From: an uncultured Methanosarcinales archaeon
Lineage (GTDB): Archaea; Nanobdellota; Nanobdellia; Woesearchaeales; CAIVOO01
NCBI GenBank assembly: GCA_964485195.1
Contig: CAZAIK010000001.1
Span: 62,001-126,000 of the forward strand
DNA: 64,000 nt
Reading direction: 5' to 3'
The notes beneath the pieces are model-generated. The model had not been told where the DNA came from and made no database searches. It saw only the letters and a list, made by a program, of their open reading frames with translations. The translations under genes were made by a program, and so were the position numbers. Positions 2,768 to 48,043 of the stretch are shown piece after piece. Within the stretch, counting starts at the first letter, position 1. Each line of letters opens with the position of its first letter.

Positions 2768-4201
2768 TTAGCCCTTCATAACAGCGATTGGTATGAATTT
2801 TGCAACAATATTGCCTATCCCCAGCTTGTCAGAAACCTTCACAACCTCATCAATGTCCTTGTAAACGTCAGGGGCCTCTTCTGCAACCCCTTTCCAGGAT
2901 GAGGACTTCACAATTATGTTCTTTGCCTCCATCATGCTCTTGACCTGTTCTCCCCTGTGCTTTTTCAGGGCAGCGTGCCTTGACATAACCCTCCCTGCGC
3001 CGTGGGCTGTGGAGCCCCAGCTGACCTTCTCTGCCTCCTTGGTTCCCACAAGAAGATAAGATGCCGTGCCCATTGAGCCGGGTATGAGGACGGGCTGGCC
3101 CACATCCCTGTAAATTTCAGGGATTTCCTCCCTTCCAGGGCCGAATGACCTTGTTGCGCCCTTTCTGTGAATGCATATCTTCCTGTTCTCTCCATCCACT
3201 TCGTGGTTTTCAAACTTGGCTATGTTATGGCATACATCATAGACTAAATCCATCCCTTCTGAAGTACCCATGACCTTCTTAAACGCGTCTCTTGTCCAGT
3301 GCATTATCATCTGCCGATTGGCGAATGCATAATTGACAGCGCAGCACATTGCGGAATAATACTGCTGCCCTAATTCTGATTTTATAGGGGCGTTGACCAG
3401 CTCCCTGTCCGGGAGATGTGAATAGCCATACTTGTTTTCCATTGATTTAATGTAGTCAGTGGCTATCTGGTGCCCCAAACCCCGTGAACCGCAGTGTATC
3501 ATTACAGTTACCTGGCCTTCCTTTTCTATCCCGAATTTTTTTGCAATCTCAGTATTGAAGATTTTCTCGACTTTCTGTATTTCCAGGAAATGGTTGCCCG
3601 CGCCAAGGGTTCCCAGCTGGGGCTTTCCCCGCTCCAGGGCTTTTGAGGACACGTTTCGCGGATCTGAATCCTTCATCCTGCCGTATTCCTCTATCCTCTG
3701 CAGGTCATCCTTGGCGCCGTAGCCGTTCTCAACAGCCCATTCTGCGCCTTTCTTGAGGACATTCATCAGCTCTTCCTGGGATAATTTGGTTATGCCTCCT
3801 TTGCCGACTCCTGCAGGCACCTCCTTGAAAAGTGTATCCAAAAGCTCTTTTCTCTTGTTTTCCACGTCCTCTGCTTCCCAGTTTGTCCTTAACAAGCGCA
3901 CTCCGCAGTTAATGTCATAACCTATCCCTCCAGGGGAGATGACCCCTTCGTTTATGTCAAACGCAGCCACACCCCCTATGGGAAATCCATACCCTTCGTG
4001 GGCATCAGGCATCACCAGGGCGTGCTTTATTATGCCTTTCATGCAGGCCACGTTCCTTAACTGCTTCAGGGTGCTGTCCTGCTTTATCTTTTCCATCAGG
4101 GCTTCAGAAGCGTAAATGAAGGCAGGGACTTTCATAGGGCCTGTTTTGGGTATTTCATAAATATACTCAGATTTTTTTGTGGGCTCTATTTTTTCTTCCA
4201 T
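2768..4201 (-). CDS. rtcB: tRNA-splicing ligase RtcB
   Basis: MPDAHEGYGFPIGG, GYDINCGVRL, GTLGAGNHFLE, HRKGATR, STAHGAGR, AEEAPDVYK motifs. Confidence 0.97.
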   Translation of the reverse strand: MEEKIEPTKKSEYIYEIPKTGPMKVPAFIYASEALMEKIKQDSTLKQLRNVACMKGIIKHALVMPDAHEGYGFPIGGVAAFDINEGVISPGGIGYDINCGVRLLRTNWEAEDVENKRKELLDTLFKEVPAGVGKGGITKLSQEELMNVLKKGAEWAVENGYGAKDDLQRIEEYGRMKDSDPRNVSSKALERGKPQLGTLGAGNHFLEIQKVEKIFNTEIAKKFGIEKEGQVTVMIHCGSRGLGHQIATDYIKSMENKYGYSHLPDRELVNAPIKSELGQQYYSAMCCAVNYAFANRQMIMHWTRDAFKKVMGTSEGMDLVYDVCHNIAKFENHEVDGENRKICIHRKGATRSFGPGREEIPEIYRDVGQPVLIPGSMGTASYLLVGTKEAEKVSWGSTAHGAGRVMSRHAALKKHRGEQVKSMMEAKNIIVKSSSWKGVAEEAPDVYKDIDEVVKVSDKLGIGNIVAKFIPIAVMKG

Positions 4202-4253
4202 AAGTCATCTGTCTACAGGCAGGTTTATATATATTTCTGAAAACCAGGGCTGG

Positions 4254-4484
4254 GTGGAGAGAAAAAACTTTTCAGAAAAGAAAAAGAAGAAAGAGGAGCC
4301 AAGGTTTGATATTGCCGAAGAGAAGAACACTATGGCTGTCCACGACCACGTGTGCGAGAAATGCGGGTACAATAAAGCCCAGCTGATTGAGTGCGGAATT
4401 GAGATTGCTGACGAGGACTGCAGGATAAAATACAAATGCGGCAGGTGCGGCCACGTGGAGGACGTGAGCGAGAAGCCAAGATAA
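4254..4484 (+). CDS. TFS/RpoM-like C-terminal zinc-ribbon protein
   Basis: CEKCG...ADE...YKCGRCG resembles TFS C-ribbon; GTG start at 4254 inferred, downstream of TTTATATA. Confidence 0.6.
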   Translation: MERKNFSEKKKKKEEPRFDIAEEKNTMAVHDHVCEKCGYNKAQLIECGIEIADEDCRIKYKCGRCGHVEDVSEKPR

Positions 4485-4488
4485 AAAA

Positions 4489-5136
4489 TCAGGGTCCTAT
4501 GATTTTATTTATATAGGACGCGACATCCGCGATGCTCCTGGTTCCTACCGTTTTTACATCTGGGTATTCTGCTTTTACCTTGTTGATTACCATAATTTCC
4601 GCCGAGATTATATGTGTATTCCCCCTTGCATTTTCATCAGGCCCGGTCAGGATTATTCCGGGATTGTGCTCCAGACTGCGGGAAAGTTCAATAAGTTCGG
4701 GCATTTTTGAATAAACAGAGTTCTTGTTGATATCTGAATAAACATTTGTAAGGGAAGATCCGTTATTTGAATGGTAATTTCCGAACAATAGCTTGTAAAA
4801 AACAATTACTCTGGGATTTAAGGGAACTGCCAATTCAAAAATGTCATCAATGCTGTTAAGGAATGTTTTTGTTGTTTTAATCCTCTGGAAGTCTGTGTAG
4901 TCCCGCTTGAACTGCATTTTTTCCCTTTCCCCCTTCAGATGGCTTTCCAAAAGCTGGAAAAGGTCATTAACAGATTTGTGGGGATATGACAGGAATGGGT
5001 CATACCACCTGTTCATAAGTAATACAACGTCGGAAGGGAACTGGCAAGAAGGCAAGGGCAGTCCGTCTTTTTCAGGGATCCTTAGGCTGCCCATTCTTCC
5101 AAGGTCCATTTTTCTTTTAGGCTTGATCTCCCCCAT
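4489..5136 (-). CDS. hypothetical protein
   Basis: 215-aa ORF directly downstream of archease. Confidence 0.6.
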   Translation of the reverse strand: MGEIKPKRKMDLGRMGSLRIPEKDGLPLPSCQFPSDVVLLMNRWYDPFLSYPHKSVNDLFQLLESHLKGEREKMQFKRDYTDFQRIKTTKTFLNSIDDIFELAVPLNPRVIVFYKLLFGNYHSNNGSSLTNVYSDINKNSVYSKMPELIELSRSLEHNPGIILTGPDENARGNTHIISAEIMVINKVKAEYPDVKTVGTRSIADVASYINKIIGP

Positions 5137-5139
5137 AGT

Positions 5140-5550
5140 CTATATATCAACAACAACCTGAACGTGATTTTCCTTGACTTCCATGTCCATATAAGTAACT
5201 GCTTTTATCCCTGTCTCTATCTCGTACTTGTCCTCAACTGAATCCCCGGACAATGTTGCTGTCAAAAAATATCCCTTTCCCTTGGGATTGATTTTGATGT
5301 CTGTCACCTTGTGCAGTATGAAGTTACGGGTGTCCAACAAGAAAAGCAGTTCATCGAGAAAAGAGGCCAGCAGCTGCTTCAGGTCATTGCCGGAAACCTG
5401 CACTGACTTGGTAATGTTCGCCTTGACTTTTTCAGGGTCTGTCATTATTTTTGTCATTGCCTCTGCTGCATTGGCAAAACACTCTTCAAAAGAGCTTCCG
5501 TAAGCCCTGAACTTTACGTCAGATGTGTGCTCCAGGAATTCATATTTCAT
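5140..5550 (-). CDS. archease (RtcB cofactor)
   Basis: YEFLEHTSDV...IKAVTY...VVVDI. Confidence 0.95.
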   Translation of the reverse strand: MKYEFLEHTSDVKFRAYGSSFEECFANAAEAMTKIMTDPEKVKANITKSVQVSGNDLKQLLASFLDELLFLLDTRNFILHKVTDIKINPKGKGYFLTATLSGDSVEDKYEIETGIKAVTYMDMEVKENHVQVVVDI

Positions 5551-7577: not shown

Positions 7578-8641
7578 TAAATGTAGTTTATTTCCACAGG
7601 GAACTGATCCCAGGTTGGGTATTCTATAACAGTTGCAGGTTTAAAACCTTTCTCTTTTAATTCTTCCCCAAGGTTTTCTGCAACTGCTGTTGTTGTCAAC
7701 AGCCTTTTCCCTGCCTTGTCAACCTCCAGCAGCTCTTTTGGAATCTTGTATTTCCTGTTCAGGGAATTTTTTAATTTTTCCAGCTTTTCAGCATCTCCGT
7801 AAATCACTCCCCTTACCAGCATTCCTTCTTTTGTAACATAATCATAAGGCTTTTTAACGTTCCTTGCCCGCCTTTTTATCCTGTTTCCCATCTGAACCCT
7901 TTCCTTTAATGTTGTAGTGCAGTAATGGATGCGCTTTATCCTGTTTTCATAGGCCTTCAAAAGTTTCTTTGCCACCTCCTCCGAGCCCTTAATGCCATAA
8001 GAAATCCTGTCTTTTGGGACAAAAGTGCCGAGCATTTTCTGGGCTTTATTGTCAGCCATTTCCAGCTCGTTAAGATTGAGGAAATTTATCCTGTTGCTGA
8101 AATAATCAATTAATTTCCTGGTTTGCTTTTCTGCACCTGGAATCACGGGAATTTCAATGCCAAGGTCCCATTCGTAGTTTGCAAGAATCTCCGCTTTATG
8201 CCACAGCTTGTCAGAATAAATGTCTGGGTGCACCCTTATCTCGTCAAGCCCTGCGTTATATAATTTTTTTGCCTTGCTCTTGTCAACAAGCTCAAGCGAG
8301 GTGTAGAGATGGATGTGAAAGCCCCCTCCAAAACGTTTTTTAAGCAGTTTGATGTATTTAATTGTCCTGTCCATCTGGGTTAGAGGGTCCCCTCCAGTAA
8401 TGCCTGCCCCTTTTGCGCTGATGAGCTCTGCCTCTTTCAACACCTCTTTTTCATTCCTTACAGGCCATTCGTCAGCATAAACCACATCTTTCTGGTGTTT
8501 CTTCTCGGAAATGGGGCAGTAGAAGCAGCTGCGAGGGCACAATCCTGTTATGAAAAGCACCAGCTTCTGCCCCTTGACGCACAACTGGCACCCCTTGGGC
8601 AGGCTTCCTGATTTCCAAGAATAATGTTGAGTTCTTTTCAT
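7577..8641 (-). CDS. uncharacterised archaeal radical SAM protein (COG2108-like)
   Basis: LPKGCQLC...CPRSCFYC, GITGGDP; start at 8641 avoids overlap with divergent gene. Confidence 0.88.
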   Translation of the reverse strand: MKRTQHYSWKSGSLPKGCQLCVKGQKLVLFITGLCPRSCFYCPISEKKHQKDVVYADEWPVRNEKEVLKEAELISAKGAGITGGDPLTQMDRTIKYIKLLKKRFGGGFHIHLYTSLELVDKSKAKKLYNAGLDEIRVHPDIYSDKLWHKAEILANYEWDLGIEIPVIPGAEKQTRKLIDYFSNRINFLNLNELEMADNKAQKMLGTFVPKDRISYGIKGSEEVAKKLLKAYENRIKRIHYCTTTLKERVQMGNRIKRRARNVKKPYDYVTKEGMLVRGVIYGDAEKLEKLKNSLNRKYKIPKELLEVDKAGKRLLTTTAVAENLGEELKEKGFKPATVIEYPTWDQFPVEINYI

Positions 8642-10920: not shown

Positions 10921-11054
10921 GGGCCCATAGCGCAGTCTGGTCTGTCGTGTTCCTTGATTGCAAGGATGCTCGCAGGGGCAATAGCGCACCTGGCTCTTAT
11001 TGCCTGACGGCAAAAGAAACCAGTAGGTCGGGGGTTCGAATCCCTCTGGGCCCA
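10921..11054 (+). tRNA. tRNA-Lys(CTT) with two introns (D-loop ~10942-10982; canonical 11000-11018)
   Basis: GGGCCCA/TGGGCCC acceptor, GCGC D stem, CT-CTT-A loop, GGTTCGAATCC. Confidence 0.88.
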
Positions 11055-22161: not shown

Positions 22162-22318
22162 CGGGCCCGGGGGGATTTTCTTTTCTTTGCATATTAGCAA
22201 ATGACATTCGAACCCCCGACCTACAGCTCTCTTCGCGTATTGCGTAGGAGGCTGCCGCCCTATTTGCACGAGCGCAGCGAGTGCTTTGCTGCTGCCCACC
22301 AGACTAGGCTACGGGCCC
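22162..22318 (-). tRNA. tRNA-Arg(CCT) with three introns (D-loop ~22262-22297; canonical 22229-22244; T-loop ~22176-22206)
   Basis: GGGCCCG/CGGGCCC acceptor, GCAGC-CT-CCT-A..A-GCTGT, GGGGGTTCGAA..TCCCCC. Confidence 0.88.
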
Positions 22319-22408
22319 GTATTCTAGAAATTAAAATGAAATGTTTTTAAGGGTTTCGCTATGATTTAAGGTTAAGATATAAATAAAAGAAAATAAAGAA
22401 AAAGAGAA

Positions 22409-22768
22409 TTATCTTCTCCTTTTCTTGGAAGTTTTTTTCTTTGATTTCTTTTTTGATTTTTTCTTTGCAGACTTCTTCTTGGTCTTCTTCTTGGAGGTCT
22501 TTTTCTTGGCGGTCTTCTTTTTCTTTGACTTGCCCTTTTTCTTCTTGCCTCCTCTTACCATCTTTGCTGCAGAAATGTCACCCTGCTTGTCAACAAAATA
22601 GAGGTATCCTGGTTCCTTTTTAACGCCCACCTTTGCAACCTTCTTGACCTTGCCGCCTTTCTTTCCGGCCCTGGCCATCTTTGCTGCAGAAATGTCACCT
22701 TTCTTGTCGACGAAGTAAAGCCATCCGTCCTCTTTTTCAACTCCTACTTTTGCTACTTTTTTTGCCAT
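22409..22768 (-). CDS. Cc1-like tandem-repeat chromatin protein with Lys-rich tail
   Basis: Duplicated KKVAKVGVxKExG(W/Y)LYFVDKxGDISAAKM unit plus ~45-aa K/S tail; AGGAGGT SD; family assignment from recall. Confidence 0.65.
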   Translation of the reverse strand: MAKKVAKVGVEKEDGWLYFVDKKGDISAAKMARAGKKGGKVKKVAKVGVKKEPGYLYFVDKQGDISAAKMVRGGKKKKGKSKKKKTAKKKTSKKKTKKKSAKKKSKKKSKKKTSKKRRR

Positions 22769-22959
22769 GTTTGACAACCTCCTTTTTTGAAAACTTTATG
22801 TCAGAAAATAAAAAACTCATTTATATACTTTTTTATTTTTCCGCCTGTTTTCTCTCGGAGAAGCGCACTAAAAATGGGGTTATTGCCCCGCCAGATGTGT
22901 TCACCACTTTATAAATATGAAACAAAAGGTTTAAATAGAAGCAAGGCGGATTTTCCTTC

Positions 22960-27075: not shown

Positions 27076-27106
27076 GCAGAGAACCTGCTCCAGTTTTTGC
27101 AGGTAT

Positions 27107-27255
27107 GTAATGTCAAGTTAATTGTGGTGAATGCTGGCACTGCCTGGCGCAGTTGTCAATTAAAACTCCAGATTTTGAATAAATCGGGTTCAGAAGCGGT
27201 AAATTGGGCAGACGGAGCGCAGTGCCAGCGTAAAACACATAGCACTTGATATTGC
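27107..27255 (+). repeat. palindromic structured repeat, copy E1
   Basis: Nested inverted repeats 27107-27118/27244-27255 and 27131-27143/27219-27231; homologous to 42326-42418 and 46874-47078. Confidence 0.8.
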
Positions 27256-27302
27256 CAGGTATGGATAAGTTTTATAAACACTCTGCTTTTATTTTTGTTC
27301 AC

Positions 27303-27386
27303 GCCCCCGTGGCTTAGTAGTTATAGCGGCTGACTTGTACAGGTTAAGAAATCAGCAGGTCGTGGGTGCAACTCCCACCGGGGGCT
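27303..27386 (+). tRNA. tRNA-Thr(TGT) with 11-nt canonical intron (27340-27350)
   Basis: GCCCCCG/CGGGGGC acceptor, GCTGA/TCAGC anticodon stem; variant D/T loops. Confidence 0.88.
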
Positions 27387-41723: not shown

Positions 41724-42154
41724 TTTCAGATTCCGCATACATTTTATTGTAAGTGCGGGGAGCAGGATTTCCGAGAGAGCAGTTCTGGTAAACTGCTACA
41801 GCGTTCGAACCTGCGTAGGCACNNNNNNNNNNNNNNNNNNNNNNNNNNNNNNNNNNNNNNNNNNNNNNNNNNNNNNNNNNNNNNNNNNNNNNNNNNNNNN
41901 NNNNNNNNNNNNNNNNNNNNNNTTTCCGAGAGAGCAGTTCTGGTAAACTGCTACAGCGTTCGAACCTGCGTAGGCACCGCGCATAAGGGTTTCACCCTTA
42001 TCAACCTGAAAGTATGCATAAAGCATTCTGGCTGAAACTGGCTGTTATTTGAAGGTTTCAGATTCCGCATACATTTTATTGTAAGTGCGGGGAGCAGGAT
42101 TTCCGAGAGAGCAGTTCTGGTAAACTGCTACAGCGTTCGAACCTGCGTAGGCAC
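41724..42154 (-). repeat. 99-bp direct repeat of tRNA-Leu 3' part plus trailer (41724-41822, 42056-42154) enclosing a 78-bp unique segment; includes N gap
   Basis: Exact identity read directly; the 55 nt after the gap (41923-41977) duplicate the 55 nt before it. Confidence 0.85.
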
Positions 42155-42259
42155 TAAGCCAACAGATGGCTCACGTGTCACTTCATTGTCTCCAATACTG
42201 GAACCTCAGCACTCAACTCGTCTTGAGTCTGCCCCGTTTGGCCACTCCGGCATCCCCGC
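42086..42259 (-). tRNA. tRNA-Leu(CAA) with two introns (canonical 42168-42221; T-loop ~42100-42135)
   Basis: GCGGGGA/TCCCCGC acceptor, GCAGA-CT-CAA-G..A-TCTGT, long variable arm. Confidence 0.9.
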
Positions 42260-42325
42260 AATATAGATAGAGTAAAATAGCAATTTTTAAAGCTTGCCCT
42301 ACCATTACCAAAATAAGTTTGTGAC

Positions 42326-42418
42326 TGGTACTGCGCTACGTCCGCTTCCAAAACCGCTTCTGAACCCGAATTAGTCATAATCGCAATGATAATTGGATGA
42401 CTCCACCAGGCAGTACCA
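42326..42418 (-). repeat. palindromic structured repeat, copy E3
   Basis: TGGTACTGC/GCAGTACCA stem; 17-mer TCGGGTTCAGAAGCGGT identical to E1. Confidence 0.75.
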
Positions 42419-42476
42419 AAGGCAGTGCAACAAATTGCTAATTGCTTTTTATTAAAAAGATTTATAAAATAGAAAA

Positions 42477-46196: not shown

Positions 46197-46823
46197 TTAT
46201 TTCCCTCTTCTTGCTAACGAGACCATAATCTGCAATATCCTTAAAACAAGTTCAACAATAATCACAAACATCAGATAATAAAGCATTTCTTTCCACAGGG
46301 AGAGTATCTGACTTGCAGTTTCAATGGATGTTTGCACAGAGAAAACAGAGGTGTAGTCAATCAGGAAGACTCCCAAAAGGGTGAAAGGAACTATCTTTGC
46401 CAGGTCCCTGCTTAAATCTTCACTGTAATATGCCGTTATCCTCACAGCAGCTACCAAGGCTATTGAGGTTATGAGAACTGTCTCAGGAGTGTGGGCTTTT
46501 GAGAGGAACAGCAATAAAGCTGCCAAGACCGCAAACCAGATGAAGATGGCAATCGGAATCAGGAAGATGTTCTCTATTATGTACAGTATCACCTGGAGAA
46601 AATTGCTGAAAATTCCGCTGAATTTTTTTGAATGCTTGTGAAGCTCCAGTTTCAGCAAATCCCTCCTAGCCAGGAACCTGTAAAACTTGAAAATAAAAAA
46701 GGCATATATGACTATGCCTATGACCAAAACCACCAATGGCTTTATTGCCGAGAAATAATTCAGAAAGGAAAAGTCTGCAAAAACCTCAGAAGCAGAAATG
46801 TTGGTCAGATTATGAATCGCCAT
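46197..46823 (-). CDS. hypothetical membrane protein
   Basis: About 5 hydrophobic segments. Confidence 0.7.
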   Translation of the reverse strand: MAIHNLTNISASEVFADFSFLNYFSAIKPLVVLVIGIVIYAFFIFKFYRFLARRDLLKLELHKHSKKFSGIFSNFLQVILYIIENIFLIPIAIFIWFAVLAALLLFLSKAHTPETVLITSIALVAAVRITAYYSEDLSRDLAKIVPFTLLGVFLIDYTSVFSVQTSIETASQILSLWKEMLYYLMFVIIVELVLRILQIMVSLARRGK

Positions 46824-46873
46824 CTTTTATTCAGAAAATGGCCGTGTTTTTTAAAAACCTTTCTGAAAAGAGG

Positions 46874-47078
46874 TTAAGTCAACTGTTATGTGTTCTGTGC
46901 TGGCACAAGAAAATGCCAACTAGCATTTTCTGTGCAGAAAATCCTAAAAAGGATTTTCTTGCACTGCCCAGCGCAGTCCTCAGATTTGCTGTCAGATGCC
47001 AAATAAACCGGACTAAACTCCTAATTCGCATCGGCACGGAGCGCGGTGCCAGCATTCACCACCCTTAACTTGACTTAA
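46874..47078. repeat. palindromic structured repeat, copy E2, with nested 54-bp insert
   Basis: TTAAGTCAA/TTGACTTAA and TGCTGGCAC/GTGCCAGCA inverted repeats; arms 27/29 and 23/29 identical to E1 arms. Confidence 0.8.
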
Positions 47079-47124
47079 GCCTGAAAAGGCAAGATTTTTA
47101 ATAATCAGGAACGCTGTGCAATAA

Positions 47125-47833: not shown

Positions 47834-48043
47834 TTATCTCCTTTTCTTTTTTTTGCTGGACTTTCTTTTGGCGGACTTTTTCTTCTTGGTAGTTTTTCTC
47901 TTTGTCGTCTTTTTCTTGGCGGACTTTTTCTTCTTTGGTTTCTTCTTCAGCATCTCTTTCCTTTTCTCAAGGCCCTTTATCTTTTTCATGAGCCTTTTTA
48001 TTTCCGTGTTTGCTGCTTTAACGCTTTTAGGTAGTTTTGCCAT
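47834..48043 (-). CDS. small Lys-rich (H1-like) basic protein
   Basis: GAGGTGA SD; KKKKSAKKK repeats. Confidence 0.7.
   Translation of the reverse strand: MAKLPKSVKAANTEIKRLMKKIKGLEKRKEMLKKKPKKKKSAKKKTTKRKTTKKKKSAKRKSSKKKKRR

Follow-up and report, generated by a model that had tools for sequence, protein, structure and literature searches.

The DNA analyzed here is a 64-kb stretch (the window) whose genes, as identified with Pfam, include those for PCNA, RtcB, archease, GatDE, GatCAB, Cdc48, HerA, and Mre11-type proteins, along with further archaeal housekeeping functions. Named relatives of the RNase J encoded in the window come from MAGs of Candidatus Woesearchaeota and Nanoarchaeota; the best non-self match overall is 88% identical. 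Together, the RNase J relatives and the archaeal housekeeping genes place the window in the chromosome of a Woesearchaeota-like DPANN archaeon. The comparison set consisted of 80 loci that are neighborhoods of RNase J homologues; in the closest of these, L001, the RNase J is 73% identical to that of the window. Nearly all of the 80 loci are labeled Woesearchaeota, Nanoarchaeota, or Nanoarchaeia, and some carry automatic "Methanosarcinales" labels.

Three copies of a short element, E1, E2, and E3, lie in the window. By our reading of the sequence, two divergent genes have their promoter-like A/T boxes on either side of E2, which leaves both uninterrupted. The limits that we set for E2 agree to within 3 bases with the interval 46874–47078 given in a preliminary description of this DNA. 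The sole ORF across E2 (46736–47068, 110 aa) overlaps the arms and is outside the 77 ORFs that were scanned. The parts of the three copies are given below, with A and B denoting the two types of arm.

46863–46870, unstranded: left target-site duplication of E2, CTGAAAAG, found by script and in the sequence.
46871–47080, plus strand: E2, a complete MITE-like element of 210 bp, with inverted ends abutted by an exact 8-bp direct repeat and a strong fold.
46871–46906, plus strand: left arm of E2, ending in GCTGGCAC; its middle is of B type, as in the right arm of E1 (23/29 against the reverse complement of the E1 right arm, 20/29 against the E1 left arm).
46907–46960, plus strand: nested 54-bp insert in E2 with two hairpins, missing from E1 and E3 in the alignments.
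46965–47045, plus strand: unique core of E2, from TGCCCAGCGCAGT to ACGGAGCGCG, oriented as the E1 core according to the alignments (covariance-model match, 76.1 bits).
47046–47080, plus strand: right arm of E2, the reverse complement of the A type found as the left arm of E1 (2 mismatches in 29; inverted repeat I3, 32 nt at 91%).
47081–47088, unstranded: right target-site duplication of E2, CTGAAAAG, found by script and in the sequence.
27108–27255, plus strand: E1, a complete element of 148 bp with arms at 27108–27143 and 27219–27255 and its core at 27144–27218, defined by inverted repeat I9, the direct repeat, the fold, and the covariance model.
27100–27107 and 27256–27263: 8-bp target duplication of E1, CAGGTATG, a direct repeat found by script.
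42293–42431, minus strand, outer limits approximate: E3, a third and more degenerate copy, with core and inner stem at 42325–42419 (covariance-model match, 87.5 bits).

E1 and E2 are each bounded by imperfect inverted repeats of about 36 bp. The arms of E1 form inverted repeat I9 (35 nt at 74%), those of E2 pair over about 36 nt, and inverted repeat I3 joins E1 with E2 (32 nt at 91%). Between the arms of an E1/E2-type element lies a unique core of 75–80 nt that extends from TGCC..GCGCAGT to ACGGAGCGC. Both elements fold far better than shuffled sequences, with −83.4 kcal/mol for E2 (z −6.63) and −57.7 kcal/mol for E1 (z −4.38); in each case, 0 of 200 shuffles was as good. The fold of E3 is not better than shuffles (z −1.14). 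E3 had been described as the core with unrelated flanks, which is only partly right. Its outer arms do differ. The inner stem of E3 is related to that of the other copies, with GGTACTGC/GCAGTACC covarying with GGCACTGC/GCAGTGCC. At the 5′ junction of E3, a 12-nt tandem duplication occupies 42407–42431 on the minus strand.

The insert nested in E2 (46907–46960) has features of its own. It ends in a perfect 8-bp inverted repeat, AAGAAAAT/ATTTTCTT, and is flanked by a direct repeat of GCAC at 46903–46906 and 46961–46964, while its two hairpins are made of four AGAAAAT/ATTTTCT units. A second copy was found neither in the window nor in the 80 loci. It may represent either a local duplication of a hairpin or a second mobile element of very small size.

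We then placed the three copies in a wider family. A profile of the window copies retrieved weak relatives in L038 (E 0.02) and L036 (E 0.41), and a second profile round added L040 (E 1e-4) as well as a 5′ fragment in L036. Six copies went into covariance model R1, which was searched against 1.24 Mb, comprising the window and the 80 loci. It recovered its six copies, with E1 scoring 91.4 bits, plus one in L060 (26.8 bits, E 0.0016); with filters off, it returned three copies in the window and no more. The relatives thus contribute four further full copies in 3 of the 80 loci, namely L036, L038, L040 (orthologous to L038), and L060, for a family total of seven. The count of three refers to the 64 kb of the window. 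Partial 5′ copies were also seen, one being an isolated fragment at 8037–8089 of L036 and the other a short duplicate of the 5′ core motif at about 9610–9630 of L060, upstream of the full copy. When all seven copies and the E2 insert were compared with the 80 loci by blastn-short, only chance 14–16-mers were returned, apart from the L038/L040 orthology. An Rfam search of the loci of 10 relatives found one tRNA and nothing else. A DNA-pattern scan for the core motifs gave 0 matches in 185,579 species genomes, a collection outside which the window genome or the loci fall, and the wider census is therefore thin.

Several properties of these copies are those of a miniature inverted-repeat transposon. 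The copies are 105–210 bp long and have no coding capacity of their own, and target duplications abut the inverted ends in three of the six copies examined (exact 8-bp repeats at E1 and E2 and a 7-bp repeat, GTAATTC, at L036, whose ends pair at 14 of 15 positions by hand count). A MITE-like element is defined by this combination of target duplication and inverted ends with small size and no coding capacity, and exact 8-bp direct repeats abutting the inverted ends of independent copies indicate transposition with staggered target cuts. The script found no exact duplication at L038, L040, or E3; L040 has a weak 6-bp repeat only, and E3 (42293–42431) has no clear target duplication. Pfam searches of 77 ORFs, supplemented by NCBIfam for the 29 of these that were unnamed, detected no transposase, invertase, integrase, or recombinase in the 64-kb window. 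Likewise, the window contains no autonomous partner with the same ends, and arm-like sequence is absent from the 80 loci. With no transposase or autonomous element of matching ends detected, mobilization is something that we infer: a transposase encoded elsewhere would recognize the ends of the element, and its staggered-cut insertion would leave the 8-bp target duplication.

Another property of the family argues against the MITE reading. The ends vary between genomes, with E1 and E2 starting around AATGTCAAG and TTAAGTCAA and L036 starting with GTATGTGCA, and the core motifs are conserved. This is unusual, being the opposite of the conserved ends and free interior that are typical of MITEs.

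The genomic setting of the copies was also surveyed. At all five independent insertion sites considered (E1, E2, E3, L036, and L038), a TATA-box-like A/T motif is no more than about 15 nt away, and tRNA genes adjoin three copies (E1, E3, and L060). These neighbors could reflect a target preference for promoter regions or the plain A/T-rich composition of intergenic DNA. In L001, where the gatA-gatC-glycosyltransferase block is syntenic, no E3-like element lies upstream of the orthologous multi-intron tRNA, and the promoter directly adjoins that gene. The upstream gene in L001 also differs, and about 35 nt of tRNA promoter align, so this locus is at most a partial empty site for E3.

The tRNA genes of the window have peculiarities of their own. 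The tRNA at 27303–27386 contains a short intron. At 42086–42259 on the minus strand, directly downstream of E3, is a tRNA, apparently Leu(CAA), with several introns, one of them in the T-loop. ARAGORN does not call it, nor does Rfam at gathering score, and its L001 orthologue has two introns, none in the T-loop. A further multi-intron tRNA-like gene at 22166–22319 (minus strand) has acceptor arms GGGCCCG/CGGGCCC and a T-loop split by about 29 nt. It is missed by tRNA finders, and its T-arm forms inverted repeat I10, paired with the weak tRNA at 10975–11054. The RtcB RNA ligase and archease genes are close together within 2771–5550, a proximity that fits the many intron-bearing tRNAs in the window. 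Elsewhere, repeats of CTTCTT/TTTTTC with a 12–15-nt period occupy 22406–22777 (repeat family D1) and 47834–47952 (D4); read on the minus strand, both code for protein segments of low complexity that are rich in lysine and have no Pfam match.

The relationship between E1 and E2 centers on their arms. Because the two arms of an element are not identical, the element has a left and a right, and the core has a polarity of its own. At up to 3 mismatches, the left arm of E1 (27112–27140) matches one other place in the window, the minus strand of 47046–47074 (2 mismatches); the expectation from 100 shuffles is 0 matches. This is the 27/29 agreement with the reverse complement of the right end of E2 that the preliminary description had reported, and our arm comparison bears it out. 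The right arm of E1 has no second match in the window at up to 3 mismatches; against the reverse complement of the left end of E2 (46878–46906), the script reproduces the reported 23/29. The cross identities between E1 and E2 are thus 27/29 and 23/29, compared with 20/29 and 19/29 for arms on the same side. When only the middle 15 columns of the alignment of the four arms are counted, the cross comparisons give 13/15 and 11/15, whereas both the same-side and the within-element comparisons give 7/15 and 6/15. By hand count, each of the B-type arms differs from the A type at nine positions, of which seven coincide and five carry the same base; the swap therefore reflects shared ancestry rather than independent decay.

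Two further parts of the earlier account hold as well. The cores of E1 and E2 are collinear on the plus strand by alignment, and the changeover falls within the inner inverted repeat, where all four arms have GCTGGCAC as their inner 8 bases; within each element, the identical stretch is 8–11 bp long. In terms of arm types, E1 is A-core-B′ and E2 is B-core-A′. The arm swap is real and well above chance, and the data support E1 and E2 as true isomers in which the unique core has opposite orientations relative to an asymmetric pair of arms.

The simplest route between the isomers would be a turn of the core between the arms, which interconverts A-core-B′ and B-core-A′ and changes nothing else. 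The core may have inverted between the element's own arms, with the crossover within the inner 8 bp that are identical in the four arms, by homologous recombination or by a replication template switch in the hairpin. Such an inversion could have taken place at the E2 locus or in a source copy before transposition, and as both isomers keep intact ends, either could transpose. The cores of E1 and E2 are identical at 47 of 80 positions (59%), which marks them as old, separate insertions and fixed isomers, not two states of one locus. The outcome would accordingly be a fixed evolutionary isomer, with the mechanism and timing of the inversion deduced from the products. Overall, we consider it probable that E2 is a MITE/foldback copy in a Woesearchaeota-like DPANN archaeon and that its polarity most likely arose from core inversion between its own arms.

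Our results also raise the question of whether arms and core were instead exchanged between copies. Through recombination or gene conversion at the junctions ACTGCC and AGCGCAGTGCC, family members could have been assembled as chimeras, the A/B and B/A arrangements being two of the possible assortments. The arms and the core do have different histories, which makes this a serious rival. The E1 core is closest to that of E3 (58/78) and the E1 arms are closest to those of E2; likewise, the A arms of E1 and E2 agree at 27/29 positions, although their cores agree at only 47/80. The left arm of E2 is itself a mosaic, its outer 12 bases resembling its own right arm (9/12) and its middle the right arm of E1 (11/15). 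A 30-nt block (27171–27200 in E1 and 42353–42382 in E3) is 90% identical between these two cores and includes an identical 17-mer, and the rest of the cores and the arms are far more different; this pattern suggests patchy gene conversion between copies. A precedent exists in the Correia elements of Neisseria, whose end variants are reported to occur in all combinations in the accessible part of one study (PMC2649163). Against such an exchange, the parents with two A arms or two B arms are not seen in the window, only two copies there have these arms, and the homology at the junctions is short (about 8–15 bp). With just two A/B-armed copies, a single inversion and a chimera between copies are inseparable, and we regard the chimeric origin as rather unlikely.

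A more active role had been proposed for E2, namely that the core is an invertible or independently mobile module and that E2, lying between divergent genes, could act as a switch. Our comparison retains the isomers and the separability of core and arms, and nothing in it supports a working switch. In such a system, a site-specific recombinase would flip the core between the arms and thereby alter the neighbors of E2; a segment of about 140 bp with inverted repeats on both sides does lie between two divergent genes, and both core orientations exist in the family. We nevertheless give this very little credence. No invertase, integrase, transposase, or other recombinase was found in the 64 kb, the two orientations occur at different loci with cores only 59% identical, the target duplications point to transposition, the core has no demonstrated promoter, and neither neighbor is interrupted. 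In switches of the fimS and hin type, flipping takes place at a single locus, with a dedicated recombinase close by. E1 and E2 share with them a short segment between inverted repeats, present in both orientations and beside genes, but here the orientations belong to different old insertions and the 64-kb window yielded no recombinase.

Hairpin-transfer replication, also invoked to explain the isomers, does not suit E1 and E2, which have target-site duplications on both sides and are embedded among the housekeeping genes of a chromosome. The flip/flop hairpins of parvoviruses are the ends of a linear single-stranded genome and are produced by hairpin transfer with a Rep nickase. The likeness is that two isomers differ by the inverted unpaired center of an imperfect palindrome; unlike the viral hairpins, E1 and E2 are internal to a cellular chromosome and have target duplications, and no Rep was found. 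Nor do we find it credible that the swapped arms are a product of local misassembly or of a template switch during assembly. The window's only N gap has duplicated flanks (41724–42154) and lies 170 bp from E3. There, a run of 100 N (41823–41922) is flanked by exact repeats of 55–99 bp, which are copies of the 3′ part of the tRNA at 42086–42259, and the arrangement looks like an artifact of scaffolding or assembly at a repeat rather than biology. The sequence at E1 and E2 is clean, this gap being about 14.6 kb away from E1 and 4.7 kb from E2; each element has its own intact target duplication, and the two differ at so many arm and core positions that neither is a copy-paste of the other.

As a further alternative to a plain transposon, we considered whether the element is primarily a structured noncoding RNA gene, in which a long stem closes the structure, the junction is asymmetric and conserved, the second helix is short, and the top varies. 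In that case, RNA function would drive its spread and retention, and a swap of the stem strands would be tolerated because pairing alone would matter. In the six-copy alignment, the closing stem and second helix are 91% paired and 9 of the 17 pairs change on both sides; for the closing stem across lineages, the figures are 96% of cells paired and 6 of 10 pairs changing on both sides. The covariation score was reached by 0 of 500 shuffles, and partners slid by 1–3 columns pair at only 19–49%. The junction motifs are kept between genomes whose RNase J is about 50–57% identical to that of the window, and the outer ends differ. Across the copies, the ten pairs of the inner stem include five G-U wobbles and no A-C mismatch, and in the orthologous L038 and L040 copies, two A-to-G changes produce G-U pairs that preserve the stem. 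By our reading, A/T-rich TATA-like boxes are present 13–16 nt upstream of several copies, in the sense direction.

These observations have limits as support for an RNA gene. The inverted ends of a transposon covary by construction, so that covariation has no discriminating power for RNA, and the target duplications show that the copies inserted as DNA units. Counted by hand across whole arms, the wobble bias is weak (about 9 versus 3). Between L038 and L040, the interior evolves faster than its surroundings, with 69/95 positions identical in the element, 107/120 in the left flank, and 385/444 amino acids in RNase J. No Rfam family match was obtained for E1, E2, E3, or L036 even at E up to 10, and the fold of E3, as noted above, does not surpass that of shuffled sequences. 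A consensus structure for the interior is unstable whether derived from three or six copies, and the support is limited to the closing stem and short second helix. The covariation of the closing stem, together with the wobbles, hints at selection on a sense-strand RNA or a single-strand fold, and not on DNA ends alone. We judge an RNA gene as the primary identity to be distinctly unlikely. It is equally doubtful, in our estimation, that the core and covarying stem constitute a functional RNA module carried in a foldback transposon of Woesearchaeales, with a stem tolerant of strand swaps, a protein-binding junction motif, and a position near promoters and tRNA genes. An RNA or single-strand role for the element is a minority reading that we leave open.

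Several known RNA structures were compared with the element and dropped. By eye, the core resembles 5S rRNA, with an apparent closing helix in E1 and L036, but RF00001 gave no match at E up to 10 in E1, E2, E3, or L036, and the downstream strand of the supposed helix I consists of target duplication and flank bases. In the accessible text of a 2026 preprint, the Rfam 5S model is stated to detect 5S rRNA in almost every one of 208 complete genomes of Nanobdellota (123 belong to Woesearchaeales); the same text gives 203 genomes with 5S and three named exceptions. A bulge-helix-bulge processing stem was set aside by hand, since the internal loops of the arms are symmetric and not staggered bulges of 3 nt, and a K-turn was set aside because it does not match the junction. 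A Y-RNA-like stem and a tRNA-like fold were likewise checked by hand and dropped. None of these candidates had an Rfam match.

The closest analogue of the element is Neisseria's Correia repeat-enclosed element (CREE, nemis), which the accessible literature describes as the first bacterial MITE. The part of one study available to us attributes to Correia elements an inverted repeat with a directional conserved core, a target duplication, and end variants at either end (PMC2649163). A review, as far as its accessible text goes, states that Correia inversion has been reported and that effects on neighboring genes have been proposed (PMC10969869). Correia elements and the E1/E2 family share a length of about 100–200 bp, terminal inverted repeats, a directional core, and target duplication, and Correia transcripts fold into long hairpins, a further likeness to this family. 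The Correia elements occur in bacteria, have repeats of 26 bp, and target TA or CA, whereas the present family belongs to an archaeon and has imperfect arms of about 36 bp and an 8-bp target. Promoter, IHF, and RNase III effects have been demonstrated for Correia elements, while the E1/E2 family is known here from sequence alone.

Archaeal MITEs offer a second comparison. The accessible part of a MITE census lists a Woesearchaea genome among the highest archaeal densities, at 105 per Mb (PMC11602168), and the review cited above names archaeal MITE hosts (PMC10969869). Like E1 and E2, the MITEs of Sulfolobus, Halobacterium, Haloquadratum, and others are noncoding and intergenic, with inverted ends and target duplication. 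Unlike a usual MITE, the E1/E2 family has a core conserved across distantly related genomes and variable ends. The open-access text that we searched yielded no account of an archaeal MITE with an inverted core.

Together, these findings at face value document a MITE family for DPANN archaea, in which mobile elements have barely been described, and an archaeal case of the within-MITE core inversion previously reported for the Correia elements of Neisseria. As core flips are already known from similar bacterial elements, E2 is in this respect fairly ordinary. The family also carries a warning for annotation, in that such elements, with their strong fold and covarying stem, mimic structured RNA genes beside tRNA genes and promoters. 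The single feature that could raise its significance is the core, conserved and covarying across deep lineages. A working RNA core, if true, would represent a new kind of mobile RNA gene.
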